Shown: one piece after another, positions 14,252 through 41,280 of the stretch
Numbering within the stretch: position 1 is the first letter of the stretch
Layout: each line of letters opens with the position of its first letter
Source of the DNA: Escherichia coli
Lineage (GTDB): Bacteria; Pseudomonadota; Gammaproteobacteria; Enterobacterales; Enterobacteriaceae
NCBI RefSeq assembly: GCF_001677475.2
Contig: NZ_CP015229.1
DNA: 64,000 nt
Direction: 5' to 3' (one strand)
Notes under the pieces: model-generated
Told to the model about the DNA's origin: nothing
The model's input: the letters and a program-made list of their open reading frames with translations, nothing else
Databases searched by the model: none
Translations under genes and position numbers: made by a program

Positions 14252-14853
14252 AAAAGATCCTGACAACCCCGATCAAAGCTGAAGATCTGCAAGATATTCG
14301 CGTCGGCGATGTGATCTACCTGACCGGTACGCTGGTGACCTGTCGTGACGTTTGTCACCGTCGCTTGATCGAACTGAAACGTCCGATCCCTTACGATCTC
14401 AACGGCAAAGCGATTTTCCACGCTGGCCCCATCGTGCGCAAAAACGGCGACAAATGGGAGATGGTATCCGTCGGTCCGACAACCAGTATGCGTATGGAAA
14501 GTTTTGAACGTGAATTTATCGAACAGACCGGCGTGAAACTGGTGGTCGGCAAAGGCGGAATGGGGCCGCTGACCGAAGAAGGCTGCCAGAATTTCAAGGC
14601 GCTGCATGTGATTTTCCCGGCAGGCTGCGCAGTACTGGCGGCAACCCAGGTGGAAGAGATTGAAGAAGTGCACTGGACAGAACTCGGGATGCCGGAGTCG
14701 CTGTGGGTCTGCCGGGTCAAAGAGTTCGGTCCGCTGATTGTTTCTATTGATACCCACGGCAACAACCTGATAGCCGAAAACAAAAAGCTGTTCGCCGAAC
14801 GCCGCGATCCCATCGTGGAAGAGATTTGCGAGCACGTCCACTACATCAAATAA
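14248..14853 (+). CDS. ttdB: L(+)-tartrate dehydratase beta subunit
   Basis: 201-aa ORF, ATGA overlap with ttdA stop. Confidence 0.9.
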
Positions 14854-14901
14854 CCCTCCCGGAGAGGCTCACCCCCTCTCCTTTTTCGCAGGCATAACAC
14901 G

Positions 14902-16365
14902 ATGAAACCTTCCACTGAATGGTGGCGATACCTTGCGCCGCTGGCGGTCATCGCCATTATTGCTCTAATTCCGGTTCCCGCAGGGCTGGAGAGTCATACC
15001 TGGCTCTACTTTGCCGTTTTTACTGGCGTGATCGTTGGGCTGATCCTCGAACCCGTGCCGGGTGCCGTGGTGGCGATGGTGGGTATCTCCATTATCGCCA
15101 TTCTCTCGCCGTGGCTGCTGTTTAGCCCCGATCAACTCGCCCAGCCAGGCTTTAAGTTCACCGCCAAATCCCTCTCCTGGGCAGTTTCTGGTTTTTCTAA
15201 TTCGGTTATCTGGCTGATTTTCGCCGCCTTTATGTTTGGCACAGGCTATGAAAAAACCGGGCTGGGGCGACGTATCGCGCTGATTCTGGTGAAAAAGATG
15301 GGGCATCGCACGCTGTTTCTCGGCTATGCGGTGATGTTCTCCGAGCTGATCCTGGCACCTGTAACACCGTCCAACTCGGCGCGTGGTGCGGGAATTATCT
15401 ATCCCATCATCCGTAACCTGCCACCGCTCTATCAATCACAACCAAATGACAGCAGTTCACGCAGCATTGGCTCGTACATCATGTGGATGGGGATTGTTGC
15501 CGACTGCGTGACCAGCGCCATTTTCCTGACGGCGATGGCACCAAACTTGCTGTTAATTGGACTGATGAAAAGTGCATCTCACGCCACGCTGAGTTGGGGC
15601 GACTGGTTCCTCGGGATGTTGCCGCTCAGTATTTTACTGGTGCTGCTGGTTCCCTGGCTGGCTTACGTGCTGTACCCGCCGGTACTGAAGTCTGGCGATC
15701 AGGTGCCGCGCTGGGCAGAGACGGAACTGCAGGCAATGGGCCCGCTCTGTTCGCGTGAAAAACGGATGCTGGGGCTGATGGTAGGCGCGCTGGTGCTGTG
15801 GATTTTCGGCGGTGATTATATCGATGCCGCGATGGTCGGTTACAGCGTGGTGGCGCTGATGCTGCTTCTGCGCATTATCAGTTGGGACGACATTGTCAGT
15901 AATAAAGCGGCGTGGAACGTTTTCTTCTGGCTGGCCTCGCTTATCACCCTCGCTACCGGACTCAACAACACCGGTTTTATTAGCTGGTTTGGCAAACTGT
16001 TAGCAGGCAGCTTAAGCGGTTATTCGCCGACGATGGTGATGGTGGCGTTGATTGTGGTCTTTTATCTGCTGCGCTACTTTTTTGCCAGCGCCACGGCGTA
16101 TACCTCCGCCCTCGCACCGATGATGATTGCCGCTGCGCTGGCGATGCCGGAAATCCCGCTGCCGGTGTTCTGCCTGATGGTTGGTGCGGCAATTGGTCTG
16201 GGGAGCATTCTTACACCATATGCCACCGGCCCCAGTCCGATTTACTACGGCAGTGATTATCTGCCAACGGCGGATTACTGGCGACTGGGGGCGATTTTTG
16301 GGCTGATATTCCTCGTATTGCTGGTGATTACCGGCTTACTGTGGATGCCCGTGGTGTTGCTTTAA
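14902..16365 (+). CDS. ttdT: Tartrate/succinate antiporter (DASS family)
   Basis: 487-aa polytopic membrane protein downstream of ttdAB. Confidence 0.88.
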   Translation: MKPSTEWWRYLAPLAVIAIIALIPVPAGLESHTWLYFAVFTGVIVGLILEPVPGAVVAMVGISIIAILSPWLLFSPDQLAQPGFKFTAKSLSWAVSGFSNSVIWLIFAAFMFGTGYEKTGLGRRIALILVKKMGHRTLFLGYAVMFSELILAPVTPSNSARGAGIIYPIIRNLPPLYQSQPNDSSSRSIGSYIMWMGIVADCVTSAIFLTAMAPNLLLIGLMKSASHATLSWGDWFLGMLPLSILLVLLVPWLAYVLYPPVLKSGDQVPRWAETELQAMGPLCSREKRMLGLMVGALVLWIFGGDYIDAAMVGYSVVALMLLLRIISWDDIVSNKAAWNVFFWLASLITLATGLNNTGFISWFGKLLAGSLSGYSPTMVMVALIVVFYLLRYFFASATAYTSALAPMMIAAALAMPEIPLPVFCLMVGAAIGLGSILTPYATGPSPIYYGSDYLPTADYWRLGAIFGLIFLVLLVITGLLWMPVVLL

Positions 16366-19924: not shown

Positions 19925-21766
<1,842 letters not shown>

Positions 21767-22475: not shown

Positions 22476-22551
22476 GGCCCCTTAGCTCAGTGGTTAGAGC
22501 AGGCGACTCATAATCGCTTGGTCGCTGGTTCAAGTCCAGCAGGGGCCACCA
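22476..22551 (+). tRNA. ileX: tRNA-Ile (anticodon CAU, lysidine-modified)
   Basis: 76-nt sequence ggccccttagctcagtggttagagcaggcgactCATaatcgc...gggccacca folds as a canonical cloverleaf with CAT anticodon and encoded CCA; its 3' 46 nt are repeated at 36093-36141. Confidence 0.92.
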
Positions 22552-22554
22552 GAT
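22506..22554 (+). repeat. attL core (3' part of ileX plus 3 nt)
   Basis: Exact 49-bp identity with 36093-36141, read directly from the sequence. Confidence 0.85.
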
Positions 22555-22593
22555 TTCAATGAATTACAGATGTATCCAAACTATCTTGCTTTA

Positions 22594-22627
22594 CCAGGAT
22601 ACTTATAGGATACCTCTGAGAAGTATT
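22594..22627 (+). promoter_or_regulatory. Arm-type repeat near attL (AGGATAC motifs; candidate integrase/accessory-factor binding site)
   Basis: ccaggatacttataggatacctctgagaagtatt closely matches 35964-35997 near attR (29 of 34 positions). Confidence 0.45.
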
Positions 22628-22765
22628 AACAAGTAAGAATTGGCTCATGCCTACAGAACAGTTGGGTCGTAGCAGCCGTTCACCTGCGAACAAGAAAGTG
22701 CTACGGGTCTGAACTTTTGCCCCCAACTCTCCAAGAGACCGGCAAAAACCCTGACGGAGGTATCA

Positions 22766-22909
22766 ATGGATACTTTAAGAAAGGGCTCAGACCTGCTGTC
22801 TGCACGTGTGATTGCCGTTACAGGTTTAATCGCAGCACTTGGCAATTTAGGTCTATGCCCAATAGCCGTAGTGCTAGTATGTATAGCTTTAGTTATCATG
22901 CTGAAGTAA
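22766..22909 (+). CDS. 47-aa small hydrophobic membrane peptide (MDTLRKGSDLLSARVIAVTGLIAALGNLGLCPIAVVLVCIALVIMLK)
   Basis: Strong SD (ggagg) 6 nt upstream of ATG; followed by hairpin gcccagctttcgctgggc; a single predicted TM helix. Too short to be in the ORF track. Confidence 0.5.
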   Translation: MDTLRKGSDLLSARVIAVTGLIAALGNLGLCPIAVVLVCIALVIMLK

Positions 22910-23356
22910 TGACAGCGTAACAAGCTCGGCCCAGCTTTCGCTGGGCCTCCCATTTCTACCTCCCAAAATCTATTAGAAACAATAAGCCACTAAAGAAAGA
23001 GCTTTTGCTGGCTACAATACTCACATACAAACAATTTTTATTTTTCGCGGGCGTAAAAAAACGATGGGGCTGGCAGTCCGGAAGACGTCAGGGTACAGAG
23101 ATTTGTACCCGCCTCTCCCTGTGCATGAGCACAATAAGTAACCGAAGGCGGAATTCCGCCCTCGGTACTCACATATGAGAAACGATATTTCTTCCACCGA
23201 TACCCTTTATTTGGGTATCGCGAGTAAGCCCCAAAATCTGGGTGTTACTCTTACTACCCAAACTACGGGTAGTTTCCGTAGTTTCATGGTCGAGTTGCAG
23301 ATCTGCAACTCACCCACCAGCCAACGCAATTTTGCGTTATCGGGAATATCAGCAAG

Positions 23357-23641
23357 TTACCGCCGCAGTCGTTCCGGCTTCTTCCACTGGTAAGTATTTT
23401 TCGCGCTCTCCCTCCGTTGTTGAGAACGGCGACGGTATGCCAGCAACTCAAGGACTCTGATCCGTATGTCGCGCATATCCACGCCGTTAAGCTCGATACC
23501 GTCACGGCGCATCATCTCTGCCACCACACGCGCGTAATTTTCGGCTATCACGCTGTCCGGCTGCGTGGCCTCCTATTTGCTTGATGGTTGTTTGATTCCG
23601 GTAACGCGGCGGATTAATCCCAGCAATTCAGATTCTGTCAT
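23357..23641 (-). pseudogene. Amber-interrupted ORF downstream of terS (remnant of a packaging-module gene)
   Basis: MTESELLGLIRRVTGIKQPSSK, then in-frame TAG, then the 64-aa ORF 23357..23551 in the same frame; start overlaps terS stop. Confidence 0.35.
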
Positions 23642-23652
23642 AGTGCGCTACG

Positions 23653-23973
23653 TTACTTGTCTTTATTCGGCTGCAACTTATCCGGCACATTTCCGGTAGT
23701 TTCCATCAGGTAATCAGCCAGTATCTGTGGGAGGTTGTCGGCAACTCTGGCACTGGCATTACAGGCTTTAACCACTTCCCTTTTAAGCCCATCCAGCATA
23801 GCGGGGGTAATGTGTGGGAAGCTCCTTTGCATAGTAAGCGGGAGGCTGTCCATGATTGATGAAATCTGACTCGCCAGTTTTGAAAGCGCGTACATGCAAA
23901 ACTCTGTATCAATCACGTCACCGCGATCGCGCTCGTTTTTAAGTTCCTGCGCCTCCGCCTGTGCTGTCAGTAA
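23653..23973 (-). pseudogene. Small terminase subunit (lambda Nu1-like), C-terminal fragment separated from its N-terminus by the IS insertion
   Basis: Translation ...AQAEAQELKNERDRGDVIDTEFCMYALSKLASQISSIMDSLPLTMQRSFP... parallels lambda Nu1 C-terminal region (...AQADAQELKNARD...ETAFCTFVLSRIAGEIASILDGLPLSVQRRFP...) from memory. Confidence 0.7.
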
Positions 23974-24085
23974 TCTGATCCTGACTCGTAAGTATGAGAC
24001 GACAATAACTCAGTCCGCCTGGCGCCGATTATTCTGGCCGGTTTTGTAACCTGAGTGTCATTTACATGATCCAACAGGAAATGGC

Positions 24086-25465
24086 GTGACGCTCAATACT
24101 TCTCAGGTCAGTTACTATATGACTCAGCGTAAGAAAGGTATAACTCAGCATATCTCGGCCATGAAGGCTGGTATCTCAGTCCGTTCTGGTCGTCGGATCG
24201 AAAAAGGAGAGTGGGCAAAAAACAGTGTTCGGCACTGGCGCACACGCAAAGATCCTCTGGAAGCTGTGTGGGACAGCATGCTTGTTCCTCTGTTGAAAGA
24301 GAGGCCGGCTCTGACACCAACAACTCTACTGGAGATGCTACAGGATAAATATCCCGGCCAGTACCCCAACAGCCTTCGAAGAACAATGCAACGGCGGGTT
24401 CGCGAATGGAAACTACAGTATGGTACAGAGCAGGAGGTCATGTTCCGCCAGCAACATCAGCCCGGCCTGCGAGGCCTGTCGGACTTTACTGAACTGAAAG
24501 GTGTAGTTGTCACCATCGCCGGTAAGTTGTTGGCGCATAAGTTGTATCACTTCCGTCTGGAATGGAGCCACTGGAGCTGGATGCGGGTTGTTCTGGGTGG
24601 TGAGAGCTTCTCTGCTCTGGCTGAAGGCCTGCAGGAAGCCCTCGGACAACTGGGCGGAGTGCCGGTAGAACATAAAACGGACAGCCTGAGGGCAGCATGG
24701 AAACAACAGGGCGAAGATGGACGCCGCGAGCTGACTGAGCGTTATGCTACTCTCTGTCAGCACTACGGAATGCAGGGCGTACACAATAATGCCGGTCGGG
24801 GCCACGAAAATGGCTCGGTTGAAAGTGCCCACGGACATCTGAAAAGGCGTATCTGTCAGGCGCTGATACTGCGGGGCAGTAACGACTTCAGCACCATAGA
24901 AGAATATCAGGCCTTCATCACTCAGCAGGTTATGCGGCACAACCGTAACAATCAGGATCTGGTCAAGGAAGAACGTCTTCATCTGAAACCGCTGCCGCTT
25001 CGTCGCAGTGCTGACTATGATGAGCTGACTGTGAGGGTTAGTCGCAGCAGTACCATCAATGTGAAGCACGTCGTCTACAGCGTACCTTCCCGGCTTGTAG
25101 GTCAACTGTTACGGGTCAGGTTATGGGACGATCGTCTGAGCTGTTACGTTGGCAGCAGCGAGGTCATGAGCTGCCCTCGCGTCAGACCAGAAAAAGGGAA
25201 GACGCGGGCCCGTCGTATCGACTTCCGACATGTGATCGACAGTCTGGCAAAAAAGCCCGGTGCGTTCTGCCATGCAACGCTGAGAAATGACATCCTGCCG
25301 GACGATGAATGGCGGAGGCTGTGGCGTCGCTTATGTAATCATCTGGAGCCCGATATGGCAGGAAGGCTGATGGTACATGCCGGGAAACGTGGATCTGCAC
25401 CGGCTGATGCGCTTCCTGGGTATAAAAGAAAAGGCGTTGCCGGTAGTCAATGTGATACAGCATAA
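24086..25465 (+). CDS. istA: IS21-family transposase IstA
   Basis: 459-aa ORF (GTG start) with N-terminal HTH and DDE-type catalytic region; sits immediately upstream of an IstB-like gene. Confidence 0.8.
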   Translation: MTLNTSQVSYYMTQRKKGITQHISAMKAGISVRSGRRIEKGEWAKNSVRHWRTRKDPLEAVWDSMLVPLLKERPALTPTTLLEMLQDKYPGQYPNSLRRTMQRRVREWKLQYGTEQEVMFRQQHQPGLRGLSDFTELKGVVVTIAGKLLAHKLYHFRLEWSHWSWMRVVLGGESFSALAEGLQEALGQLGGVPVEHKTDSLRAAWKQQGEDGRRELTERYATLCQHYGMQGVHNNAGRGHENGSVESAHGHLKRRICQALILRGSNDFSTIEEYQAFITQQVMRHNRNNQDLVKEERLHLKPLPLRRSADYDELTVRVSRSSTINVKHVVYSVPSRLVGQLLRVRLWDDRLSCYVGSSEVMSCPRVRPEKGKTRARRIDFRHVIDSLAKKPGAFCHATLRNDILPDDEWRRLWRRLCNHLEPDMAGRLMVHAGKRGSAPADALPGYKRKGVAGSQCDTA

Positions 25466-25510
25466 CCTGAGCAGTTATGAGCAACTACTGCGTGGCAAGG
25501 GAGGTTCGCA

Positions 25511-26266
25511 GTGAGCAATATCCATCACCTTGAACATAGCCTGCGTAAACTACGCCTGACACGAGTTGGAGCTGAATGGCACGCTCTGGAAAAACGAGCG
25601 CTGGCAGAAGGCTGGACACCATCGCGCTATCTTCTGACGCTATGCAATGAAGAACTCCTGTGGCGCGAGAGTGAAAAACTGCGTCGTTATAAAAAGGAGG
25701 CCCGGTTGCCAGTTGCCAAAACGCTGAGCGAATACGACTTCAGTCAGGTGCCGGAACTGAATGGAGCTCAGTTCCGGCAACTCTGTGAAACGACAGACTG
25801 GGTTGATGCAGGAGAAAACGTTCTGCTGTTCGGAGCCAGCGGGTTGGGGAAAAGCCATCTGGCGGCAGCGATCGTGGATGGCGTAGTAGGTCAGGGCTAC
25901 CGGGCCCGGTTCTACAGCGCAGGAGAGCTGTTGCAGGAACTACGTAAAGCCAGAGCTCAGTTGAAACTGAATGAGCTGCTACTGAAACTGGATCGCTACC
26001 GGGTGATAGTGGTGGATGATCTTGGCTATGTCAAACGCGATAGTGCCGAAACGGGTGTGCTGTTCGAGTTAATAGCGCATCGCTATGAACGTGGGAGCCT
26101 GGTGATAACCAGTAACCATCCGTTCAGCATGTGGGGCAGCATCTTCGTGGATGAGACTATGGCGGTGGCTGCGGCAGACAGGCTGATCCATCACGGATAT
26201 ATGTTCGAACTGAAAGGGGAAAGCTACAGGAAAAAGACAGCGAAGGCAGTAACAAGCGCGACTTGA
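25511..26266 (+). CDS. istB: IS21-family helper ATPase IstB
   Basis: 251-aa ORF with Walker A (GASGLGKSHLA) and Walker B (VIVVDDLGY) motifs; RBS gggagg upstream of GTG start. Confidence 0.85.
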   Translation: MSNIHHLEHSLRKLRLTRVGAEWHALEKRALAEGWTPSRYLLTLCNEELLWRESEKLRRYKKEARLPVAKTLSEYDFSQVPELNGAQFRQLCETTDWVDAGENVLLFGASGLGKSHLAAAIVDGVVGQGYRARFYSAGELLQELRKARAQLKLNELLLKLDRYRVIVVDDLGYVKRDSAETGVLFELIAHRYERGSLVITSNHPFSMWGSIFVDETMAVAAADRLIHHGYMFELKGESYRKKTAKAVTSAT

Positions 26267-26325
26267 TGTCGCCCTGAAGGGTGCGGCCAGTATAGTTGGC
26301 GCGAGTCGGCAAAACTAGTTGACGT

Positions 26326-26526
26326 CTAATATCGTAAGAGTTCATCATCATCAATCTCGCCTTTGTCGTTTGTAAGCTGGCTAATTGCATTGTTAACCCT
26401 ATTGTCTATCACGCTGGCAACATCATAAAACGCCTCACGGCCTTTACGTTCAACGGGAGTCACTCCCCACTTGTCGAATGCTGTAGCACTTACCCGGCAG
26501 CTTTGCGCCATGGTTTTTTTGTTCAT
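26326..26526 (-). pseudogene. Small terminase subunit (lambda Nu1-like), N-terminal fragment truncated at the IS boundary
   Basis: MNKKTMAQSCRVSATAFDKWGVTPVERKGREAFYDVASVIDN... parallels lambda Nu1 N-terminus (MEVNKKQLADIFGASIRTIQNWQEQGMPV...); ORF ends exactly at the IS junction. Confidence 0.7.
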
Positions 26527-26639
26527 CAGGTGCGATTTCATCAATATCCCAACTTGGTCAAGGTTTCAGGTTGGTGTGTTGGTGTTATCTTTCCCTTTTT
26601 ATTCATGGAGATAGAGCAAACAACAAAACCACCACCACC

Positions 26640-26745
26640 CCCCTGAAAAAGCTCATAAATAGCGAAAAACCGCGAGGTCGCCGCCCCGTAACGGGTCCAT
26701 ATGCCGGAAAGGACCCGTAAAAAAAGCCGGATTTCTCCGGCCTTG
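26640..26745 (-). other. Lambda-type cos site (cosN with flanking terminase-binding region)
   Basis: Minus strand reads ACGGGTCCTTTCCGG...CGTTACG-GGGCGGCGACCT-CGCGGTTTTTCGCTATTTATGA, nearly identical to the phage lambda cohesive-end region as I recall it (GGGCGGCGACCTCGCGGGTTTTCGCTATTTATGAAAA); lies ~150 nt upstream of the Nu1-like start. Confidence 0.75.
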
Positions 26746-26747
26746 TC

Positions 26748-27161
26748 TCAGATGGTTTTCAGTATGCGATCGATGTCGCCATCATCGCCCGGGTTTCTGC
26801 CAGCGTATGCCATACCAGCTGATACGGCTTTCGGGCTGTGCATGTCCATAAAGTTTTCAAAGGCTGCGGTAAGCTCTGGTGCAACCTTCTGGCGTTCCTG
26901 CTCTATGGTCATGCTAAGGATGCTTTTAGCCGTACCAACATCGATACAAGGCACGTTTGCCATTGCACGTAACAGCGGCTGATAGTCGCCAGATTCATCA
27001 AGCGCCATAATCGCATCAGAGCGCGGCTTGTCCTTCTCTTCCAGGCTGTTAAGTTGATATACGGCCTCGTAGGTTGATAAACCTCTGTCAGCCATTGCCC
27101 GCGCTTCGGCCTTAAATTTACTCGCCAGCGGTAGCGTCATGATGCTTTCATTCGTTGCCAT
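26748..27161 (-). CDS. Hypothetical protein (137 aa) between decoration-like gene and cos
   Basis: ORF with no motif I recognise; co-oriented with capsid genes. Confidence 0.55.
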   Translation of the reverse strand: MATNESIMTLPLASKFKAEARAMADRGLSTYEAVYQLNSLEEKDKPRSDAIMALDESGDYQPLLRAMANVPCIDVGTAKSILSMTIEQERQKVAPELTAAFENFMDMHSPKAVSAGMAYAGRNPGDDGDIDRILKTI

Positions 27162-27173
27162 CGTTCCCTCTGC

Positions 27174-27509
27174 TTATCGGGCCAGTGGCTGAACGGATAC
27201 GCCAGAACCCGCAAAGGCGGCGCATTTTTTCGCATCGGTGTCGACGCTCTCAGGCCAGTTAACGGCGGCGATATTAAATATCCCCGTCTTATAGCACTGT
27301 GCTGATTTCTGCGTCGACGTGTCAACGGGGTACGAGGTCAGATAAACAGCCTTGCCAGATTCCTGACCATCCCACGGCTTAAACTCGCCATTTTCCGCCA
27401 GCATCAGCGGGGTAAATTCCTGAATAACTCCAGCATCAGCGGCAAAATGTACCAGCGTCGTGGATACCTGCTGACTGCCTGCAAATAACTCAATGTATGG
27501 AGTGTTCAT
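27174..27509 (-). CDS. Head decoration protein (lambda gpD-like)
   Basis: 111-aa ORF, size and position next to an E-like capsid gene match lambda D (110 aa); assignment by context and size, weak sequence recall. Confidence 0.6.
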   Translation of the reverse strand: MNTPYIELFAGSQQVSTTLVHFAADAGVIQEFTPLMLAENGEFKPWDGQESGKAVYLTSYPVDTSTQKSAQCYKTGIFNIAAVNWPESVDTDAKKCAAFAGSGVSVQPLAR

Positions 27510-27520
27510 AGAATCCCCCG

Positions 27521-28576
27521 TTAAGCAATTTTGACGGTAACAAATTTGCGAATATCTGCCGGTACCGGCTGCGGTGCGCTGTGCGTCTGCACGTACTCAA
27601 TCGCCGGATCGCCATCCTCAATCCAGTTTTTCGGGTAGTACATGTTTTGCGTTGCGCCAGTTCTTACCGCTTCCGGATCCATAATCGCACCATAGGCCAC
27701 CAGCCCTTTATTGTTAGTGTTGCCCAGGACAAGCAAATCAGGCTCAAGGAAATATTTTTCGGTGCCATCGCTGTCGGTGTATTTGCCGGAATAGACGATA
27801 AGGGCCAGATCACCCAGATAGCCTTTAAAGCTCACCACTTCGCCCAGGTTTTTACAGGCCAGCTCTGCGGCGGATTCTGAACCACGGGAAAGATCGTACA
27901 GTTCACGGAATTTTTTAAAGCTGCGTAACGTGCGCCATACCTCAGCGCCCATAATCATGACGTTGGCGGGGCAACCAGCCTGATCGGTGTATAGTTCGAT
28001 GTCATAGATTGGATCGTGTGTTTCCTTATCTGCCTCAGACCACTTTTTGCCCGATCCCTGCGTAATGATGTTTTTAGTCGGGATTTTCCAGTCGATTTCG
28101 TATCTATTTATTCCTTCGCCCTCAATGATGTTTTTTCCGGTCGTGACCGCATTCACCGCCAGCCATTCTATGCGAGCTTTAATAGCGTTTACCTGGCGGC
28201 GCATGTTGCCAGTAATCAGGCGCATACGGCGATAAGTTGGATCGTTAAGCTGTGCCGGATCTTCTCCAGCCATGCGCATGATGGTTTTTGATGGATCGAT
28301 TTCGTGTTTTGGTTTCATATAGCCAGGGCGGATAGTGCTTGTTTCGTACCCTTTATCGCGCTGAACCTGACTCCCCACCATAGGCGAACAAAAAGCCGAC
28401 ATGGTGACTTCTTCAATATCCAGGGTATCTAACATGATGTCCTGCGTGTTGAAGGTTGCCACGTTCGGGAAAAACAGCGACGTAAACAGCGGACTGAATT
28501 TAAATTCCGAAATATCCCCACGATTCAGGTACGCGAAAAGCTGGTTAGTGTTAAGTGCCGTTGCTTTGCCTGTCAT
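27521..28576 (-). CDS. Major capsid protein (lambda gpE-like)
   Basis: 351-aa ORF aligning along its length with lambda E from memory: FKFSPLFTSLFF / FKFDPLFLRLFF, PGYMKPKHEIDP / PGYVKPKHEVNP, YSGKY...LVLGNTNN...YPKNW / YSGQY...MVLGNTQA...YPKNW. Confidence 0.8.
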   Translation of the reverse strand: MTGKATALNTNQLFAYLNRGDISEFKFSPLFTSLFFPNVATFNTQDIMLDTLDIEEVTMSAFCSPMVGSQVQRDKGYETSTIRPGYMKPKHEIDPSKTIMRMAGEDPAQLNDPTYRRMRLITGNMRRQVNAIKARIEWLAVNAVTTGKNIIEGEGINRYEIDWKIPTKNIITQGSGKKWSEADKETHDPIYDIELYTDQAGCPANVMIMGAEVWRTLRSFKKFRELYDLSRGSESAAELACKNLGEVVSFKGYLGDLALIVYSGKYTDSDGTEKYFLEPDLLVLGNTNNKGLVAYGAIMDPEAVRTGATQNMYYPKNWIEDGDPAIEYVQTHSAPQPVPADIRKFVTVKIA

Positions 28577-28815
28577 TATTCACCCCCATGAGTCTGATTC
28601 ATGCCCAGCGCCGCGCGTAAATAGGCGCGTACCTGCCAGCCTGTTGACGGCTCAACCATCGCCAGCGGCTCAAGTCCTGCCGCAATGCCTGCTTTTACGT
28701 TCTGCTGGTGGCGTTCCTTGAGCGCCTCCACGATGTCTGGGCTTATGTAAACTGTCACCCCGCCTTTTTTCTCTTCTGCCATAGTCGGAAATTCCTCTTT
28801 GACGTTAAAAATCAC
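28576..28815 (-). CDS. Hypothetical small protein translationally coupled to the capsid gene
   Basis: 79-aa ORF (possibly starting at internal MAEEKK); stop shares one base with the capsid ATG. Confidence 0.5.
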   Translation of the reverse strand: MIFNVKEEFPTMAEEKKGGVTVYISPDIVEALKERHQQNVKAGIAAGLEPLAMVEPSTGWQVRAYLRAALGMNQTHGGE

Positions 28816-28846
28816 AACTGGATGTTCATCCAGTTGTGATTATAAT
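28811..28846. promoter_or_regulatory. Perfect 14-bp inverted repeat plus TATAAT box upstream of the capsid operon
   Basis: atcacaactggatg-tt-catccagttgtgat immediately followed by tataat; read directly. Confidence 0.45.
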
Positions 28847-28951
28847 CATGATTTCATTTTACGCAATAATGTTGAGTTGTGTTGCAAATTGTGAAATGAT
28901 TTCCGGCAACAGTAGTCACCATACTGTTAGATAAAAGCCTCATATGCAAAA

Positions 28952-29028
28952 GCCCGATAAGACCCTCTGACCTTATCGGGCTTTTTTTGGGGCATAAAAA
29001 AGCCGGACTTCTCCGGCTTCTGTTACTC
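28952..29028. terminator. Pair of intrinsic terminator hairpins between the SSB gene and the capsid operon
   Basis: gcccgataag...cttatcgggc followed by T-run; and gccggacttctccggc flanked by A-run / T-run (functional on minus strand). Confidence 0.55.
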
Positions 29029-29033
29029 GTTGC

Positions 29034-29456
29034 TTAAAACGGTATGTTATCCCCGTACGGATCATCGTTACCCGCCTGTTGTTTTGCCCTGTTCAGTGCG
29101 TCAGTAGCCTGCCCTTGCTGGCCTTTTTTGCCGCCCGGTCGCGCCGTTCTCGCACTGATTACGCTGTCTGCGATAACCTGCCAGCCCTGCCGCGTTTCGC
29201 CGTTCTGGCCTGTCCACTGGCTTACCTGCATGTTACCCGCCACGCTCACCAGTTCGCCTTTGTGGTGTTTTGCCAGTGCGTCGGCCTGTCTGCCAAACGC
29301 CAGGACGGATAACCACATCGTCGCCGTTCCGTCATCTGCCTGGCTGCACGGAAGGGGGACCGCCATACTAGCCATCGTCATTTGTGTACCCTTGCTGGTG
29401 GTCTTTAACTGCGGGTCAGCCACCAGCCGCCCGTAAGCCGCTATCTGTGCTGTCAT
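29034..29456 (-). CDS. Single-stranded DNA-binding protein (island-encoded SSB)
   Basis: 140-aa ORF; Gly/Gln-rich linker and acidic C-terminal tip ...DDPYGDNIPF resembling the SSB C-terminal DDDIPF motif. Confidence 0.75.
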   Translation of the reverse strand: MTAQIAAYGRLVADPQLKTTSKGTQMTMASMAVPLPCSQADDGTATMWLSVLAFGRQADALAKHHKGELVSVAGNMQVSQWTGQNGETRQGWQVIADSVISARTARPGGKKGQQGQATDALNRAKQQAGNDDPYGDNIPF

Positions 29457-29698
29457 GCTGTCTGCTCTCCGGTTTTAACGTTGATGGTTGTCACCTGTTC
29501 CGCTTCGGCAATCTCCCGTTCTGTCAGCGTGGCAAAGTTTGCAGCTGCCGTTGTCATGAATGCGCTAATCAGTTCGGGATGTGCTTTCGCATATCCTTCC
29601 CCGGCGTTGCGGTCGATGATTTTTATCGACACCCTTAACCAGTGTTCCGTCAAATCAAGGGCGTGCGATTGTGATTTTTTTGTGTGCTTCGCTGTCAT
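29453..29698 (-). CDS. Hypothetical protein (81 aa), coupled to ssb by ATGA overlap
   Basis: ORF directly downstream of the iteron array; no recognised domain. Confidence 0.5.
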   Translation of the reverse strand: MTAKHTKKSQSHALDLTEHWLRVSIKIIDRNAGEGYAKAHPELISAFMTTAAANFATLTEREIAEAEQVTTINVKTGEQTA

Positions 29699-29742
29699 AG
29701 GCTTTATCTCACAGCAGTAAATTAAAATTTTTGCGTTTTAAC

Positions 29743-29971
29743 CCTTCACCTGTTCACCTTTTGATATTTTCCATTTAAATTCATACTGTTAAGGGGTGAA
29801 CAGTTTCACAAAAACTATTCACCAACTGTTCACCACTGTTCACCCTTGAAGCTCAATAAACAACCAAAAAGGTGAACAGTGAATAGTTTGGTGAATAGTT
29901 CATAAATAACTGTTCACCCTATAATATACTGATATAAAAGATATTTATGACAGGGTGAACAGTGGTGAACA
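29743..29971. repeat. Iteron array (P4 ori/crr-type TGTTCACC octamers)
   Basis: Perfect TGTTCACC at 29751, 29827, 29837, 29911 and its complement GGTGAACA at 29795, 29871, 29954, 29964, plus degenerate copies (tattcacc, ggtgaata), within ~230 bp immediately 3' of the primase gene. Confidence 0.8.
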
Positions 29972-29985
29972 GTTATTCCATAAGT

Positions 29986-31803
29986 TTAATTTTTGCTATC
30001 GTCATTAGTGACTGATACACATGATGGCATCCAGTCTTCTGATTCCTCCGTCAGTGTCACGTTTGAACGTAAACCGTGCTTCGTTTTCCGTTTTATATAC
30101 TCCCTGCCATATTCCGCCATTGCCCCAGGCATATCTTTACCGAAGCGCGTCAGTGTTACAGGTTTACCAAACCCATGAGCCCTCATATAAGCCAGATAGG
30201 CATGATAGAGATACCTGCGCGGGCTGAATGGCACAATTTCAGCATTACCCACTAACAGGCCATCACACATTACCGACGCCATGAGATAGCCGCAGAAGTC
30301 CACCAGCGAATCCCCCTCTCGCTTTATCGCCAGTGCTTCTTCAGATTTCTGCTGCTCATATAACAGGCGTCTGGCTTCGTCCTGGTCAGCAAACCTTGTA
30401 AGCAGATGGCGAATCACTACCGCCAGCTCACCTTCTATTTTTTCCGCCAGCATCGGATCGCGTTCGTTCTCCGGTACAACTTCCGAAAAATTGAATATCA
30501 CCCGACGACGTGAGATCCCCCCGCTGCGGTCACTGAATGACATGGCGTTATTGTTAACCGCCAGCACTACTGCCGGAATACGCGTTGAGTAGGGGGCTTT
30601 GTGTTTCGGGTCAATTGCCACCTTGTCACCGCCTGTAATGGCCTTAATTCCTGCCCCATCACCAGCGTAGCGGGTCATATCCGGCATGATAATCAGCGAA
30701 AAGCCAACCACTAACGCGCGTTCCCTTGCATCTTCCAGCGCCTTCATGCTTGCCGATACTGTGTTGGCCTTACCCGCCAGCATGGTGCAAATCTCCGCCA
30801 TCACGCTTTTACCACTTCCCCCTGGACCTGTTACCTCAATGAATAACTGCCAGTCGTACCGGTTCGCCAGCACCATGAATAATGCAGCCAGTACGCGATC
30901 CGCCTTGCGGTCATTCTCAGCCACCGAACGGCGTAACCACTTCCAGAAATTCGGCGCATGTGTTGCCAGCGTTTCCCCCTCTGCTGGTGGGCTGAAAGGT
31001 AATTCACTGGCAATTAACAACCAGTCGTTTTTGTTATGCTCCCGAAAATTACCTGTTCTGGTATCAAATACCCCGTTACTGAATCCAATCAGGTTACGGG
31101 CTGTATTCCCCATTACAGGCAAACTTAACTTCATGGTATCGACCGCCGATTTAATGGCGTTCTGCGAATAGCTGATCTCCGCATCAATGAAAATCTGCGC
31201 CATAGCACGCTGTAACTCTTTATCCTGAACCGGCTCCCATACAACGCCGTTGTAATGGTGAACAGTGTCAGAGTCAGCATGAATCGCCAGTTCACCGCCA
31301 TAATGTGCCAGGAGAACTTCGCCGCGTTGACTTGCTCCCATCTGGTTAAGCGCCAGTGATGAAGCGTTATCGTCTTTTACCCGCTCTTTTTTCTTTACAG
31401 GCAGTTCAACTACCTTTTTCTTTTCCGCCAGCTCTGCCCGTTCACGTTCCAGATATTCGCGCCAGTTCTCCCGTTTCTGGCTGTGCATTCCTTCAGGATA
31501 ATAATCAGCATCCCTGACACCTGCCGCTGCCAGTTTCTGCCCGATGGTATTAACAAGCCCCGGACGCAATAACCCCGCCTGGTAGAGACGCACACGATAG
31601 CGTCCGTCCGGTACGATTTGCAGGTTGTCCAGTTCGGCAAGTTGTTGCTCTCCAAGCCAGACAGGAGGCACGTTATCGCCAGCCAGTCGCCCGTCCTGTT
31701 CCTGCCACTGCTTCGCATGTGCCCACGCATCACTACCCGCAAAAATGATGACTTCCGTCATTTTGTCACGTGGCTGGTGTTTTAAATTTGGCGCTTTTTT
31801 CAT
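29986..31803 (-). CDS. Satellite replication protein (P4 alpha-like primase-helicase, D5-type NTPase)
   Basis: 605-aa ORF (likely start MKKAP with ATGA overlap to upstream gene); Walker A GPGGSGKS; adjacent to TGTTCACC iterons. Confidence 0.75.
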   Translation of the reverse strand: MKKAPNLKHQPRDKMTEVIIFAGSDAWAHAKQWQEQDGRLAGDNVPPVWLGEQQLAELDNLQIVPDGRYRVRLYQAGLLRPGLVNTIGQKLAAAGVRDADYYPEGMHSQKRENWREYLERERAELAEKKKVVELPVKKKERVKDDNASSLALNQMGASQRGEVLLAHYGGELAIHADSDTVHHYNGVVWEPVQDKELQRAMAQIFIDAEISYSQNAIKSAVDTMKLSLPVMGNTARNLIGFSNGVFDTRTGNFREHNKNDWLLIASELPFSPPAEGETLATHAPNFWKWLRRSVAENDRKADRVLAALFMVLANRYDWQLFIEVTGPGGSGKSVMAEICTMLAGKANTVSASMKALEDARERALVVGFSLIIMPDMTRYAGDGAGIKAITGGDKVAIDPKHKAPYSTRIPAVVLAVNNNAMSFSDRSGGISRRRVIFNFSEVVPENERDPMLAEKIEGELAVVIRHLLTRFADQDEARRLLYEQQKSEEALAIKREGDSLVDFCGYLMASVMCDGLLVGNAEIVPFSPRRYLYHAYLAYMRAHGFGKPVTLTRFGKDMPGAMAEYGREYIKRKTKHGLRSNVTLTEESEDWMPSCVSVTNDDSKN

Positions 31804-32099
31804 TTCTGCTCTCTCCACGCGGCAATCATGTTTTTCAGTTCCTGTAGTTTTTTATCAACATCCATACATGACACATGGTTATTTCTGGAAGGCGGGATTT
31901 CCCGCCGGAATCTGCAAATAAAGATCTCCACGTTCAGCGAGCTATGAAATGAATAGCCATCACGAATAAAATACACACGGTCAAACATTATCGATTTTAC
32001 TGTTACTCTGTTGCCGTTCTTATCCCGATAAATAGCGCCGGGGATAATTTTGGGATGTGCATAACCGCTGGCAGTCAAGCCAGATAAATACGTTCTCAT
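31800..32099 (-). CDS. Hypothetical protein (99 aa)
   Basis: ORF translationally coupled to the primase gene; no recognised domain. Confidence 0.5.
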   Translation of the reverse strand: MRTYLSGLTASGYAHPKIIPGAIYRDKNGNRVTVKSIMFDRVYFIRDGYSFHSSLNVEIFICRFRREIPPSRNNHVSCMDVDKKLQELKNMIAAWREQK

Positions 32100-32105
32100 G
32101 ATTAT

Positions 32106-32426
32106 TTATCCCCGATTTGAATCAGTATTCGCTTTCTTTATGGCATTTAATGCATCTGTGGCATTTTCAATGGTGCACCGTAACGAAATATCAAAATGTC
32201 CAAGCATTGCCAGTAACAAACCGATATTACCCATATCAATGCGCATGGCCTTTTCGTCATAGTCCTCATTTTCTGACGCATGCCACATCAGGCTACCAAT
32301 TGACGCAACGGCCATTGATATATTGTCAGTCGCCCCATCCGCAGCGGAATAAACCTTTTTAGCAATATCATGCTCACAGTTAAAATGCGGATTAATCAGG
32401 TACTGGTAATTTGACATATCAGGCAT
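32106..32426 (-). CDS. Hypothetical protein (106 aa)
   Basis: ORF upstream of the 99-aa gene; lower GC than flanking island DNA. Confidence 0.5.
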   Translation of the reverse strand: MPDMSNYQYLINPHFNCEHDIAKKVYSAADGATDNISMAVASIGSLMWHASENEDYDEKAMRIDMGNIGLLLAMLGHFDISLRCTIENATDALNAIKKANTDSNRG

Positions 32427-32622
32427 GGCACACCCCCTGACGAATACGGGCGGCGAATACCATCACGCAGCCAGCCGGGGAGTGCTGGCGTGCTTCCTGT
32501 TCGCTGGTGGCCACGATGGTAATCACACGCGGTTTTGCGGCGCTCAGGGCGATAAAACGCCAGGCGAATTTATTCAGGTTGTGCGAATCCCGCCCTTGCG
32601 GGTGTATGGTATGATTTCTCAT
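32419..32622 (-). CDS. Small protein, possibly Icd-like (host cell-division inhibitor family of P4-like elements)
   Basis: 67-aa ORF MRNHTIHPQGRDSHNLNKFAWRFIALSAAKPRVITIVATSEQEARQHSPAGCVMVFAARIRQGVCHA; the family assignment is from memory of similar annotations and is tentative. The 334-aa ORF in the track is an upstream stop-free extension that looks non-coding. Confidence 0.45.
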   Translation of the reverse strand: MRNHTIHPQGRDSHNLNKFAWRFIALSAAKPRVITIVATSEQEARQHSPAGCVMVFAARIRQGVCHA

Positions 32623-32717
32623 AGCTACCTCGATACTCTCGTTATCGTTGGTGGTTAGAAGCCCTGCGAGTGGTAACGACACTTGCGGGGCTTTGTTTTT
32701 TGTTGCACTTACTGTTA

Positions 32718-32763
32718 ATGTACGTACGTAATATTGATGATAATAGGAGTTACGTACGTACAT
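32718..32763. promoter_or_regulatory. Twin palindromic operator (two copies of TACGTACGTA, 30 bp apart) in a divergent promoter region
   Basis: atgtacgtacgtaat at 32718-32732 and gttacgtacgtacat at 32749-32763; second copy overlaps the start codon of the RHH-like gene. Confidence 0.55.
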
Positions 32764-32953
32764 GTCAACATTAAAGCGGGATAAATCACCACGCGGCGAG
32801 GGATGGTCGCCGACATTCCAGATACGAATTAGCAAAGAACTACGCCAGCAAGTAAACGAGGCAGCAACCGCCGATGGCCTAACCCTCGGCAATTGGTTTA
32901 AAGAATTAGCTCGTGCCGAACTAAAGCGACGCGGCATTGAACCTAAAGGCTGA
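32762..32953 (+). CDS. Small DNA-binding protein, probable ribbon-helix-helix fold
   Basis: 63-aa ORF; TFQIRISKELRQQVNEAA... resembles a beta-strand plus helix RHH pattern; two short basic ORFs follow at 32957-33082 and 33138-33317. Confidence 0.5.
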   Translation: MSTLKRDKSPRGEGWSPTFQIRISKELRQQVNEAATADGLTLGNWFKELARAELKRRGIEPKG

Positions 32954-33429
32954 TGTATGACTGAAAAGCAGACCGATAACAAACTTTCTCTACCAGAGAA
33001 TAAACCAGCAGGCTTCTTACCAAGAAAAATCCTTGATGAGATCAAACGCCGCCAGCGGCGCAAGGCCAAAGAGCAGGAGTAACCATCACCAGCGCCGTGG
33101 TGCGGTGAACTGTGGCGCACAGGGTTACAGGTATCTACGATGACTGACAAATCATTAAAGAAATTATCCTCATCCAAGAAAAAACAACGCAAAAATGCGG
33201 TAAACGAACATGAACCGGAGAGATTCGCACCATGTGCGTTTATCCTTGAGAAGTACCTTAAAGAGTATTCTAGGAAAATACGCTCATTGCAGGCATGGCA
33301 GCGAATCGAGCCAGACTGATAGCATTGCCCACCAGCCAACAACCTGGTATTCTGGATATGCTCAAGTTTAGTGTTATGCCACTGGCGGCCCTCTGCGGTC
33401 GCCTTTGTTTTATGTGCCATCACTCCCCC

Positions 33430-33648
33430 TTACACCGTCTGCGTTCTGCGAGTGGATGCAAGATAAGCATCGAGATCAGTGCGCATATACAGCACTTTGC
33501 GCCCCAGCTTATGGAAAGGGATTTTTACCTTGCCAGTACAGGCCCAGTTCGCCAGCGTTTGATTGTTAACGCCAAGGTAGGCAGCAGCTTCAGCACGTGT
33601 AAGGCGGTCAGTTGATAAATCAGATTTCTTTAAATTCATATCTATCAC
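33430..33648 (-). CDS. alpA: AlpA/excisionase-family HTH regulator
   Basis: 72-aa ORF with LTRAEAAAYLGVNNQTLANWACTGKVKIPFHKLGRKVLY (MerR-like HTH_17 pattern). Confidence 0.75.
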   Translation of the reverse strand: MIDMNLKKSDLSTDRLTRAEAAAYLGVNNQTLANWACTGKVKIPFHKLGRKVLYMRTDLDAYLASTRRTQTV

Positions 33649-33709
33649 CGTGTACTTCTAAGTAACAACGGTGATAAATATCAATCAATGGGTATTTTGT
33701 TTTTAGCCC

Positions 33710-33786
33710 AATAGCCAGTTGCTGTGGGGAGGTTACCAGTTATTTAGCCTTAATAGCCAGCTATTAAGATACACTAGCCAGCTATT
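33710..33786. promoter_or_regulatory. Three TAGCCAG-containing operator-like repeats upstream of alpA
   Basis: aatagccagttgc (33710), aatagccagctatt (33752), ctagccagctattg (33773); plus inverted repeat atcaccgtg...cacggtgat at 33651-33682. Confidence 0.45.
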
Positions 33787-34507
33787 GGGGGTGAACAAGT
33801 TCAAACGAAGAATATTTATCAGGTCTTGGTGGTTGTGCTCCTGATTCTTTAATCCATTTATCCAGAGTGTTTTTACTTACTTTCCCATGATAGTAAACAG
33901 AAAGCTCGTTCAATAAACCTGTTTTACTGGCTTTAGGGTACTTTTCCCATGTTAGTTTAATTACGTGCATAACTTCATTGTAATAATGATTTCTTGGTTT
34001 GCGCGCTTTTTCTTTCTGTGATAAGGATAAAGCATCTTTTATTTTTTTATCTTTTTCATGGTTCGATATAATTTCTTCAAAAAAGTCATTAAGCAATAAC
34101 TCAACACCAACCCTAGTAAGTTTGTCTGCGTGATTACGCATTCCGACATGGTACAATGCAACTGCTGAATTTAAAGTATCGACAACCTGACAAGATAGTT
34201 TACTATCAAATATTAAAAAACCACATGAATCCATTCTTATAGCTAATTCAATAGGATATTGCTCGATTTCTCTTAATTCTAAACCATAACACAAAAGAAA
34301 TTCTCTTGTTGGATACTTTGATTTATAAAAATAATCTCTTATATCATCAATCAAGCGTTTTATAGCCTCTATGGTGGAGTTTTTCGGGGATAAAGATACA
34401 GGAACGTTTAAAACTGAAGAGTCTCGCCCACCAGTAATTAAATCATTCATAACCGAATAAATAATATATTGTTTGACCGATATATTGTTATCACCCATAT
34501 ATGTCAT
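33782..34507 (-). CDS. AT-rich orphan protein (241 aa) in the integrase-proximal cargo position
   Basis: Long ORF with visibly lower GC than the rest of the island; overlaps the int stop; no motif I can recognise. Confidence 0.6.
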   Translation of the reverse strand: MTYMGDNNISVKQYIIYSVMNDLITGGRDSSVLNVPVSLSPKNSTIEAIKRLIDDIRDYFYKSKYPTREFLLCYGLELREIEQYPIELAIRMDSCGFLIFDSKLSCQVVDTLNSAVALYHVGMRNHADKLTRVGVELLLNDFFEEIISNHEKDKKIKDALSLSQKEKARKPRNHYYNEVMHVIKLTWEKYPKASKTGLLNELSVYYHGKVSKNTLDKWIKESGAQPPRPDKYSSFELVHPQ

Positions 34508-35912
34508 TCTTTTCTTGTACTATAGCAAATAGTAAACGACGTTTTTCATCATCACTCATGCCCTCCAGTGCGGAAAGTAATTGCGCATCGATAGATTTTT
34601 TACTCTCCACCAGCCCGGCATGTTCCAGAATTGCCCGTTCTATCCGTGATGCTGGCTCCAGCAGTTCATCAGCACCGAAATGTAAATACCCCTGCGTTAC
34701 GTCGGCACTTCGCATAGTGCGGTGATTCATCAGGCGCTTGAGGATGTAATTACCCACGCCCACCAGCTCAGCAACCGTTCCGAACGTCCGGCGTGCGTCG
34801 TGCCACTTAAACGGGACAGGGAAGAGCATTTCATCGTTCGCCTCAGGAATGGTAGCCGCGCTTATCCGGTCTATGATGTGCCGTGTCTCCTGAATCACTC
34901 CCTTCACGCCAGGAAACACCAGCACATCATCAGCAGCTTTGTTTTTTAGCCTGCGAAGAAACATTTTCCGCAACGTATCAGTGATCGGCAGTTCAAGCGG
35001 ATCCCCGTTTTTCGTGGTGTCTATCCAGAAAAAGCGACCGCCCATATTCACGCGATCCCACGTAAGGCCAAAAACTTCTGATTTCCTCAGTCCGGTAAAC
35101 AGTGCCATTTCCACGGCATCACATACCGTAACAGCTATATCATCCCTTTCCTGTTCGCCCTGGTCGCGCACAGCAGCTACAGCAGCAAACCAGCGGGGAA
35201 AATCATGCAGGCGGATACGTTCCGTTTTTCTTACCGTTCCGTGCCACTGGCGCTTGGTGCTCAGTACCAGAGTCGGCGGATCCGGTAAAAGAGTATTACC
35301 CGCATCATCACGGTAATGATCATGCGCAAACCGACACACAGCACGTAGCGCACGCGCCCATAAATCGGCCTGTGCCTTGCTTCCTGTACCAACCCCAGCC
35401 CGTAACGTGGTTTTATCAGCACCGAACCATACAGCCCCATCAGTGATGGCCTTATGCCGTTGTTCCACCCGTTCGCGGGAAATACTGGCGAGGGTATGGG
35501 CCATCCAGTCACCGGAATAATTCTGTAATATGCTGCGGTACTGTTTTTCTGTGGAGGGTTTCAGGCGGTGGCCACGATTTTTTACGTAGGCGTCAATCGC
35601 CTCACTCAGCGTTATCATGGCCTTGTTGTTAGTGCGCTTTGCTATGTTCGGATTTATCCCCGTTGTGGCGACTTCGCCAAGGAGTTCCATAGCTTTAGCC
35701 CTGGCATTATCCACGCTCAGATCAGGAAAACGCCCCAGCGTTGCACGAATAAATTTTCCGTTACGCTTACGGGAAATGCAGAAACTTTTCACACCAGACG
35801 AACCTACACGGACACGCAGCCCGTTAACCTCCGTATCACCATATTCGACCTGTCCATGTTCCGGCGTTGGCAGTTCTGCAATTTTTACTTTAGAGAATCT
35901 GAATAATTTCAC
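34491..35912 (-). CDS. int: Tyrosine site-specific integrase
   Basis: 473-aa ORF from a GTG start; catalytic signature region (LRKSE..., WHDARRTFGT, ...QGYLHF) with an N-terminal arm-binding-like domain. Confidence 0.85.
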   Translation of the reverse strand: MKLFRFSKVKIAELPTPEHGQVEYGDTEVNGLRVRVGSSGVKSFCISRKRNGKFIRATLGRFPDLSVDNARAKAMELLGEVATTGINPNIAKRTNNKAMITLSEAIDAYVKNRGHRLKPSTEKQYRSILQNYSGDWMAHTLASISRERVEQRHKAITDGAVWFGADKTTLRAGVGTGSKAQADLWARALRAVCRFAHDHYRDDAGNTLLPDPPTLVLSTKRQWHGTVRKTERIRLHDFPRWFAAVAAVRDQGEQERDDIAVTVCDAVEMALFTGLRKSEVFGLTWDRVNMGGRFFWIDTTKNGDPLELPITDTLRKMFLRRLKNKAADDVLVFPGVKGVIQETRHIIDRISAATIPEANDEMLFPVPFKWHDARRTFGTVAELVGVGNYILKRLMNHRTMRSADVTQGYLHFGADELLEPASRIERAILEHAGLVESKKSIDAQLLSALEGMSDDEKRRLLFAIVQEKNDIYG

Positions 35913-35935
35913 TCATACACCCCACCAAGCGATCT

Positions 35936-35997
35936 GGTATCCTGGAAAATCGCTTGTTCTGCTCCAGGATACCTATAGGATACCGTAAAGAAGTATT
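35936..35997 (+). promoter_or_regulatory. Arm-type repeats near attR, directly upstream of the integrase start
   Basis: ggtatcctgg / ccaggatacc inverted pair plus tandem GGATACC copies and the block shared with 22594-22627. Confidence 0.45.
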
Positions 35998-36092
35998 TTG
36001 GGGTATATACAGGTATTTATACAGTAGTTTTAAAAAATGCTAAGGTATTGAAAAGTATCGCTAAGTATCTGTAAGTAAAGGGTTATCAACCA

Positions 36093-36141
36093 ACTCATAA
36101 TCGCTTGGTCGCTGGTTCAAGTCCAGCAGGGGCCACCAGAT
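36093..36141 (+). repeat. attR core (displaced partial copy of tRNA-Ile 3' end)
   Basis: 49-bp exact copy of 22506-22554; upstream sequence is not tRNA-like, so this is not a functional tRNA. Confidence 0.85.
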
Positions 36142-36191
36142 ATAGCAAAGGCTGACGAGAAATCGTCAGCCTTTTTCTTTTTATATATCAG

Positions 36192-36956: not shown

Positions 36957-37232
36957 TGTTATCGCCTTCGTGATAGTAATAAGATATATCTAAATAAATT
37001 TCGTAAATGATAATGATTGTTAATCATGATAAATGCAAGCGATTTGTAGAACTGATACATCTGAGGTATGAGAAGACATTCAACGTCGTAGAAAGGCTGG
37101 CGGATGCGGCGTGAACGTATTATCCGGCCTGGATGTGAGGTGCATTCACGTTTAAAAATCATTTTTATACTTGCAAGAGCGCTCATGTCAGATATAAATT
37201 AGATATATCTAATTAAGCAAAAGGAGGCTGAT

Positions 37233-37856: not shown

Positions 37857-37863
37857 TCACCGA

Positions 37864-37958: not shown

Positions 37959-37962
37959 CCGA

Positions 37963-39765: not shown

Positions 39766-41280
<1,515 letters not shown>

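Follow-up and report, generated by a model that had tools for sequence, protein, structure and literature searches.

The 64,000-nucleotide stretch of Escherichia coli DNA analyzed here (contig NZ_CP015229.1 of assembly GCF_001677475.2; hereafter the window) carries a phage-inducible chromosomal island (PICI) at the tRNA gene ileX, and the gene for the island's small terminase subunit, terS, is interrupted by an insertion sequence (IS). The inserted element is the known E. coli insertion sequence ISEc10, its ends are unambiguous, and terS has been physically inactivated by the insertion, leaving an ordinary loss-of-function allele. For the locus as a whole, we consider it highly probable that ISEc10 entered terS of the ileX PICI at codon 70/71 with duplication of the target TCGTAAG, that packaging of the island was thereby lost or strongly reduced, and that the event was recent and restricted to one lineage. 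It would represent routine pseudogenisation of a member of a known family of satellites by a known insertion sequence.

Disruption of terS by ISEc10

In E. coli TUM1886 (NZ_CP128970), this island occupies the same ileX site but lacks the insertion sequence, and the strain served as the empty site for comparison. Positions 23652-23992 of the window aligned to 14597-14937 of the TUM1886 locus (L001) and positions 26332-27300 to 14931-15899, with an overlap of 7 bp between the two alignments. The heptamer TCGTAAG occurs once at the TUM1886 empty site, while in the window perfect copies (7/7) are present directly outside both ends of the insertion sequence, the left at 23986-23992 and the right at 26332-26338. 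The target site was therefore duplicated over 7 bp rather than the 4 bp (GTAA) given in an original prediction made from the letters of the window alone. Target-site duplications in the IS21 family, to which ISEc10 belongs, range from 4 to 8 bp, and a separate ISEc10 copy in RM9088 is flanked by a 7-bp duplication of its own (GGTCACC).

The TUM1886 gene annotated as 'terminase small subunit' (WP_063081125.1) encodes one intact 180-aa protein with the junction DDDELLRVRIRLLTAQAEAQ. When positions 23993-26331 and one copy of the heptamer were removed from the window in silico, a single 180-codon open reading frame (ORF) was obtained whose junction, GEIDDDELLRVRIRLLTAQAEAQELKNERD, is identical to that of the intact TUM1886 protein. 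In-frame rejoining of the two halves upon removal of the insertion sequence and its duplication had been predicted and was confirmed in this way. The junction proposed at the time (...DDDELLLTAQ...) lacks six residues (RVRIRL) relative to both the restored and the TUM1886 proteins and had remained in frame because the error was a multiple of three bases.

On the minus strand, the ORFs flanking the insertion sequence (26326-26544 and 23653-23916) belong to one Nu1-like gene, of which they represent the N- and C-terminal parts; the insertion divides it between codons 1-70 and codons 71-180. The 5' part of terS (26326-26541, minus strand) consists of codons 1-70 followed by a tyrosine codon and a stop codon supplied by the end of the insertion sequence, resulting in a predicted product of 71 aa that ends in ...ELLRY and is 100% identical to residues 1-70 of the TUM1886 TerS. 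The 3' part (23653-23992, minus strand; codons 71-180 and the stop codon) is 98% identical to TUM1886 TerS residues 69-174 and contains the match to the Pfam family Phage_Nu1. The 71-aa product is predicted to comprise the N-terminal DNA-binding region only, and the 3' part would correspond to the oligomerisation region and the presumed binding region for the large terminase subunit (TerL), cut off from promoter and start codon.

The ISEc10 copy spans positions 23993-26331 on the plus strand (2,339 bp), antisense to terS. Its plus-strand ORFs are istA (24086-25465; transposase, 459 aa) followed by an intact istB (25511-26266; AAA+ helper ATPase, 251 aa). IstA scored 226.7 bits with NCBIfam model NF033546, whose cut-off is 160, and IstB 266.7 bits with NF038214 (cut-off 200), in agreement with the predicted istA-istB element of the IS21 family. 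The element's DNA is 98.4-99.7% identical over 2.3 kb (E = 0) to copies annotated in RefSeq as 'IS21-like element ISEc10 family', and it is on this annotation of near-identical copies that the name rests. Matches to ISEc10 were present in 1,384 of 5,426 complete E. coli genomes.

The ends of the element had previously been given as ambiguous between about 23965/26324 and 23974/26333. Most of the 1,452 ISEc10-matching E. coli records ran from 54 to 2392 of a query covering 23940-26360, equivalent to window positions 23993-26331, the same ends that resulted from the TUM1886 comparison. The earlier left end was thus 19-28 bp too far to the left, while the right end was off by a few bases. The RM9088 copy has identical termini, and the terminal inverted repeats of the window copy, with 48-nt arms at 23993-24040 (left) and 26284-26331 (right) on the plus strand, are imperfect (71% complementary). 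Together, the match to ISEc10 and the base-exact duplication are far beyond chance because identity to ISEc10 extends over 2.3 kb at E = 0 and the perfect 7/7 duplication fits the empty site. There was no second ISEc10 copy in the window.

These data also bear on the explanation that terS naturally consists of two separate genes, or that the insertion sequence is a repeat misplaced during assembly, to which only the breaking of draft assemblies at ISEc10 points. The IS-free locus of 1,255 bp was found over at least 80% of its length in one stretch in 590 of the 5,426 complete genomes, where it is annotated as terminase small subunit, and since IS-free islands carry a single 180-aa gene, the fragments are not naturally separate. 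The perfect 7-bp duplication fits the empty site exactly, and the junction is crossed in an independent assembly. The draft genome GCA_018682865.1 encodes the exact 71-aa product on a 222-kb contig (JAGEVW010000009.1) that ends 105 nt into the insertion sequence and shows 100% identity with the window over the terS::ISEc10 junction. We regard this explanation as already refuted by the homologous single-gene islands and the independent assembly, and assign it a negligible probability. The original prediction had proposed comparison with IS-free homologous islands as a check and had named naturally separate fragments, or ends that bar in-frame rejoining, as observations that would speak against it; TUM1886 yielded the intact 180-aa terS, the homologues have a single gene and the frame was restored.

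A query spanning the left IS junction was covered to at least 80% by none of 1,545 matching records from the 5,426 complete RefSeq E. coli genomes. Because the junction is absent from every complete genome yet identical in GCA_018682865.1, the insertion is real and appears restricted to one lineage. GCA_018682865.1 is likely to represent the same strain as the window or a close relative, and by this distribution the insertion looks recent.

Relative to the ISEc10 elements of CFT073 and RM9088, the window copy has the same istA-istB order, the same termini and an end-to-end identity of 98.4-99.7%, and its duplication is 7 bp long as in RM9088. It differs by a 71-bp loss close to the 3' end of istA, following position 25379, compared to the 2,410-bp element of these strains. 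As a result, IstA is native up to residue 431 and frameshifted thereafter (the canonical protein has 499 aa), and the istA stop codon is uncoupled from the istB start codon, with which it normally overlaps. The helix-turn-helix (HTH), DDE and beta-barrel (residues 313-366) regions are retained in the shortened IstA, the deletion being located beyond the beta-barrel. Since the function of the extreme IstA C-terminus is undefined (PMC11208146), the autonomy of the window copy appears uncertain. None of the best-matching ISEc10 copies in complete genomes has the 71-bp deletion; all of them align in two pieces. The deleted segment begins with CCCTGAAAC and the retained sequence picks up again with CCGGGAAAC, which suggests that the deletion at 25379/25380 arose by slippage.

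TerS, cos1 and the packaging slot

The disrupted protein is, as judged from its sequence, a full-length TerS of the lambda Nu1 type, which agrees with the predicted identity of the interrupted gene as the island's Nu1-like small terminase. The restored TerS showed 36% identity to lambda gpNu1 over residues 6-166 (BLASTP, E = 1e-33; 180 versus 181 aa) and matched the Pfam family Phage_Nu1 (PF07471, E = 9.4e-22) as well as the terminase profile phrog_57, the latter over residues 1-176 (profile positions 8-195 of 199, E = 6.8e-52). Its nearest relative among 50,697 phage records was N15 gp1 with 46% identity, the homology beginning at residue 5, and no phage relative in these records exceeded 60% identity. 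No NCBIfam model matched TerS or the island's 94-aa, 137-aa and 241-aa proteins. When the restored TerS was searched against PDB sequences, there was no match to lambda TerS(1-98) or RppC, and an ankyrin match (E = 0.06) was discarded as spurious. In lambda TerS, the N-terminal approximately 65 residues make up a DNA-binding dimer of the winged-HTH kind, the central part oligomerises and the C-terminal approximately 40 residues bind TerL (PMC9026076). Identity between the island TerS and Nu1 was highest in residues 71-140 (51%) and lower in residues 1-70 (27%) and 141-180 (22%). With lambda gpNu1 and N15 gp1, the island TerS shares its length (180 versus 181 aa), homology over the full length and the position of its gene directly downstream of cosN/cosB, while unlike these proteins it is encoded without an adjacent large terminase gene. 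The missing neighbouring terL is no argument against homology because this is expected of a satellite-borne TerS.

The island's cos1 site (26542-26720, minus strand), identified by comparison with lambda cosN and cosQ, is located directly upstream of terS, and the succession of cos and terS corresponds to the lambda/N15 layout (PMC9026076). Its cosN, GGGCGGCGACCT (26675-26686, minus strand), matches lambda at 12 of 12 positions, and the 18-nt cosQ block upstream of it (TTTACGGGTCCTTTCCGG) is lambda-identical. Near-identity to lambda continues for approximately 35 nt on the right of cosN, beyond which the cosB side diverges. The terS ATG at 26541 is bp 146 counted from the cohesive end. Within the diverged cosB, a 13-nt inverted repeat (TTTCAGGTTGGTG / CACCCCCCTGAAA) is present at 26564-26576 and 26636-26648, with 85% complementarity and a distance of 59 nt between the arms. 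This repeat might be considered a candidate recognition (R) element for TerS, albeit a weak one.

The position after cos1 is where this island departs from EcCICFT073, the prototype Gram-negative cos-type PICI (Fillol-Salom et al. 2018, PMC6092414; 2019, PMC6739421), which is located in strain CFT073 at positions 31931-42655 of the locus L008. Both islands have the same gene order and a lambda-type cosN, and their capsid proteins are 94% identical. In contrast, the integration site is different (ileX in the window), and the packaging slot contains a 180-aa Nu1-type TerS instead of the 144-aa RppA, with the slot gene of the window being destroyed by the insertion sequence. We therefore assign the island, on the basis of its sequence, to the EcCICFT073 family of cos-type PICIs as a TerS-carrying member, no Rpp protein of the kind that forms a heterodimer with the helper TerS being encoded in its slot. 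In EcCICFT073 the slot is filled by rppA (c1503, 144 aa; L008 41660-42094), whose product matches the terminase profile phrog_57 over the first approximately 50 residues only and exhibits no detectable similarity to the window TerS (E = 1.3). The ileX island of KC-Dl-1 encodes a 127-aa HTH protein in this position (L009 7632-8015), while the full-length Nu1-type TerS is the slot gene here and in the 590 complete genomes mentioned above (about 11% of 5,426). Because the slot is occupied by TerS, RppA or the 127-aa HTH protein depending on the island, it appears to be polymorphic in this family, and the view of the rppA slot of EcCICFT073-family islands as an exchangeable cassette stands.

A TerS-type slot implies a mode of hijacking unlike that of Rpp, namely the direct recruitment of the helper's TerL. 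In SaPI1 and SaPIbov1 of Staphylococcus aureus, the satellite TerS pairs with the helper TerL and redirects packaging to satellite DNA. The logic is alike, although the relationship is one of functional analogy only, since the SaPI TerS acts in headful (pac) packaging and belongs to another TerS family, while the island TerS is Nu1-like and associated with cos-type packaging. TerS-type EcCICFT073-like islands are common, and the PICI papers PMC6092414, PMC6739421 and PMC9026076 describe the Rpp-type mechanism only.

Expected consequences for packaging of the island

In the proposed mechanism, intact island TerS would bind the island's own cosB beside the lambda-type cosN and recruit the TerL of a helper phage, so that concatemers of the island, and not helper DNA, would be cut and packaged. 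We infer this role from lambda and N15 terminase biology together with the arrangement of cos and terS. The truncated TerS would fail at this task, resulting in loss or strong reduction of specific island packaging, and the insertion sequence would exert a polar effect on the gene downstream. Excision and replication should still be possible because the integrase, the att repeats, the primase, the capsid genes and cos1 are intact. Deletion of rppA from EcCICFT073 'significantly reduced' transfer, the gene being needed for efficient transfer, and plasmids with EcCICFT073 cos sites were still transferred without Rpp, at lower frequency (PMC6739421). By analogy with rppA, transfer of the interrupted island is expected to be strongly reduced, not necessarily abolished. 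To call the island 'immobilised' would thus be a reasonable inference, with reduced transfer more likely than none.

Several points weigh against such a loss of function, or against attributing it to the insertion. The role of TerS in a TerS-type island is extrapolated from related systems, and neither terL nor a lambdoid prophage is present in the 64-kb window. Binding of TerL by the island TerS is assumed, the last 40 residues being only 22% identical to lambda Nu1. Some residual packaging by a helper terminase acting through the lambda-like cosN and cosQ is possible (PMC6739421). Finally, the island may have been impaired before the insertion already, because the gene downstream of terS contains a nonsense codon and a second cos site, cos2, is missing.

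The downstream gene in question, a conserved 94-codon gene assigned to phrog_1561 (23357-23641, minus strand), has an in-frame TAG at codon 23 (23573-23575), where the intact KC-Dl-1 allele, which is 98% similar, has CAG. Its start codon follows the terS stop codon after 11 bp (23642-23652), and some RefSeq records name its product a head-tail connector. The TAG is predicted to inactivate the gene and would bring the number of such lesions at the island's packaging end to two. In TUM1886 (L001 14347-14597) and EcCICFT073 (L008 42095-42373), an inverted cos2 with cosB-like repeats of its own separates the slot gene from the 93/94-aa gene; it is absent from the window, which contains a single cosN in 64 kb. 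We rejected the missing cos2 as a cause of immobilisation, as it is cos1 and not cos2 that is essential for EcCICFT073 transfer (PMC6739421). A block of packaging by the size of the added 2.35 kb was not adopted as an explanation either; three 13.6-kb copies (40.8 kb) would still fit a lambda-sized head, if that is the head the island uses.

The conservation of cos1 also speaks for the explanation that terS is disrupted and the island nevertheless mobile, a lambdoid helper terminase packaging it at a lower but real frequency. The match of cosN to lambda at all 12 positions, the conserved cosQ and the approximately 35 conserved flanking nucleotides would favour recognition by such a terminase, and the integrase, att repeats, primase and single-stranded DNA-binding protein (SSB) genes are intact. 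The findings that EcCICFT073 cos plasmids moved without Rpp and that deletion of rppA lowered transfer without abolishing it (PMC6739421) point in the same direction. On the other hand, the island cosB is unlike that of lambda, so that poor binding by a helper TerS is to be expected, and any 71-aa fragment that is produced could sit on cosB while failing to recruit TerL. Taking both sides into account, we consider appreciable residual mobility a possibility that deserves attention, yet one that is less probable than not.

The same fragment is central to a further explanation, according to which the insertion was kept for a benefit to the host, with the island serving as a non-transmissible anti-phage locus and the 71-aa TerS fragment acting in an Rpp-like or dominant-negative manner against lambdoid terminases. 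The fragment retains its own start codon, the upstream region and the whole N-terminal domain, and the contacts within the dimer of the lambda TerS DNA-binding domain, which lie within residues 11-51, would fall inside its length (PMC9026076). Rpp proteins act through a TerS-like DNA-binding domain, although they also require their own C-terminal dimerisation helices (PMC6739421), and sequence similarity to RppA was lacking. While the rest of the island is intact, the further lesion within this module is easier to reconcile with decay than with selection, and the absence of the insertion from all 5,426 complete genomes fits a recent event that was neutral or mildly deleterious. We therefore regard this explanation as improbable. 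If it were true, the satellite would be locked in place as a fixed defence locus that is able to excise and replicate.

Under the preferred explanation, that is, recent inactivation of terS by ISEc10 with loss or strong reduction of packaging, the annotation should mark both fragments of terS, and the gene downstream of them, as pseudogenes of a probably transfer-defective island. The allele constitutes a natural, clean terS knockout which, combined with the near-isogenic IS-free TUM1886 island, could be used to test the need for TerS in TerS-type cos PICIs.

Organization of the ileX island

The chromosomal order in the window is rpoD (19925-21766), mug, the tRNA gene ileX (22476-22551, anticodon CAT), the island, nfeF, nfeR and aer. 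The EcCICFT073-family PICI (22506-36140, minus strand), as delimited and classified by its direct repeats, the TUM1886 site, gene order and gene families, is bounded by perfect 48-bp att direct repeats at 22506-22553 and 36093-36140, which corresponds to an element of 13,587 bp, or 11,241 bp without the insertion sequence, the latter in keeping with the 10-15 kb typical of this family. The minus-strand gene order starts with ORFs encoding a tyrosine integrase (phrog_1, 9e-40), a 241-aa protein, an AlpA/excisionase-like HTH protein (69 aa; TIGR01764, 9e-10), an Icd-like protein, a DUF4222 protein, a D5-type primase (phrog_864, 6e-192) and an SSB, and continues with a 68-aa protein, a gpE-like capsid protein, a gpD-like decoration protein and a 137-aa protein, followed by cos, terS and the 94-codon gene. 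The TUM1886 island is 99.5% identical over 11.5 kb, and the remaining island proteins share 98.5-100% identity with their TUM1886 counterparts.

The capsid module upstream of cos1 (26748-28782, minus strand), in which all genes including that for the 68-aa protein are intact according to sequence comparison, comprises on this strand the gpE-like major capsid protein (27521-28576; 43% identity to lambda gpE), the gpD-like decoration protein (27174-27509) and the 137-aa Nu3/scaffold-like protein (26748-27161). The latter matched positions 494-568 of phrog_53 (E = 1.3e-8) and resembles the Nu3/scaffold region that makes up the C-terminal part of head maturation proteases of the lambda type. Genes for TerL, portal, protease, tail or lysis proteins were found in the island of neither the window nor TUM1886. 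In lacking terL, portal and protease and encoding only capsid, decoration and scaffold-like proteins in addition to TerS, the island is distinct from the capsid-forming PICIs (cf-PICIs), whose complete capsid and packaging set also comprises head-tail connectors. An Rfam scan of the island returned the tRNA as its sole match. At the tRNA-proximal end of the island, a segment of approximately 480 bp (22554-23035) without a convincing ORF or Rfam match is missing from the TUM1886 island but shows 98% conservation in further ileX islands, for example the one in KC-Dl-1. With this segment differing between strains, the ends of the island are mosaic.

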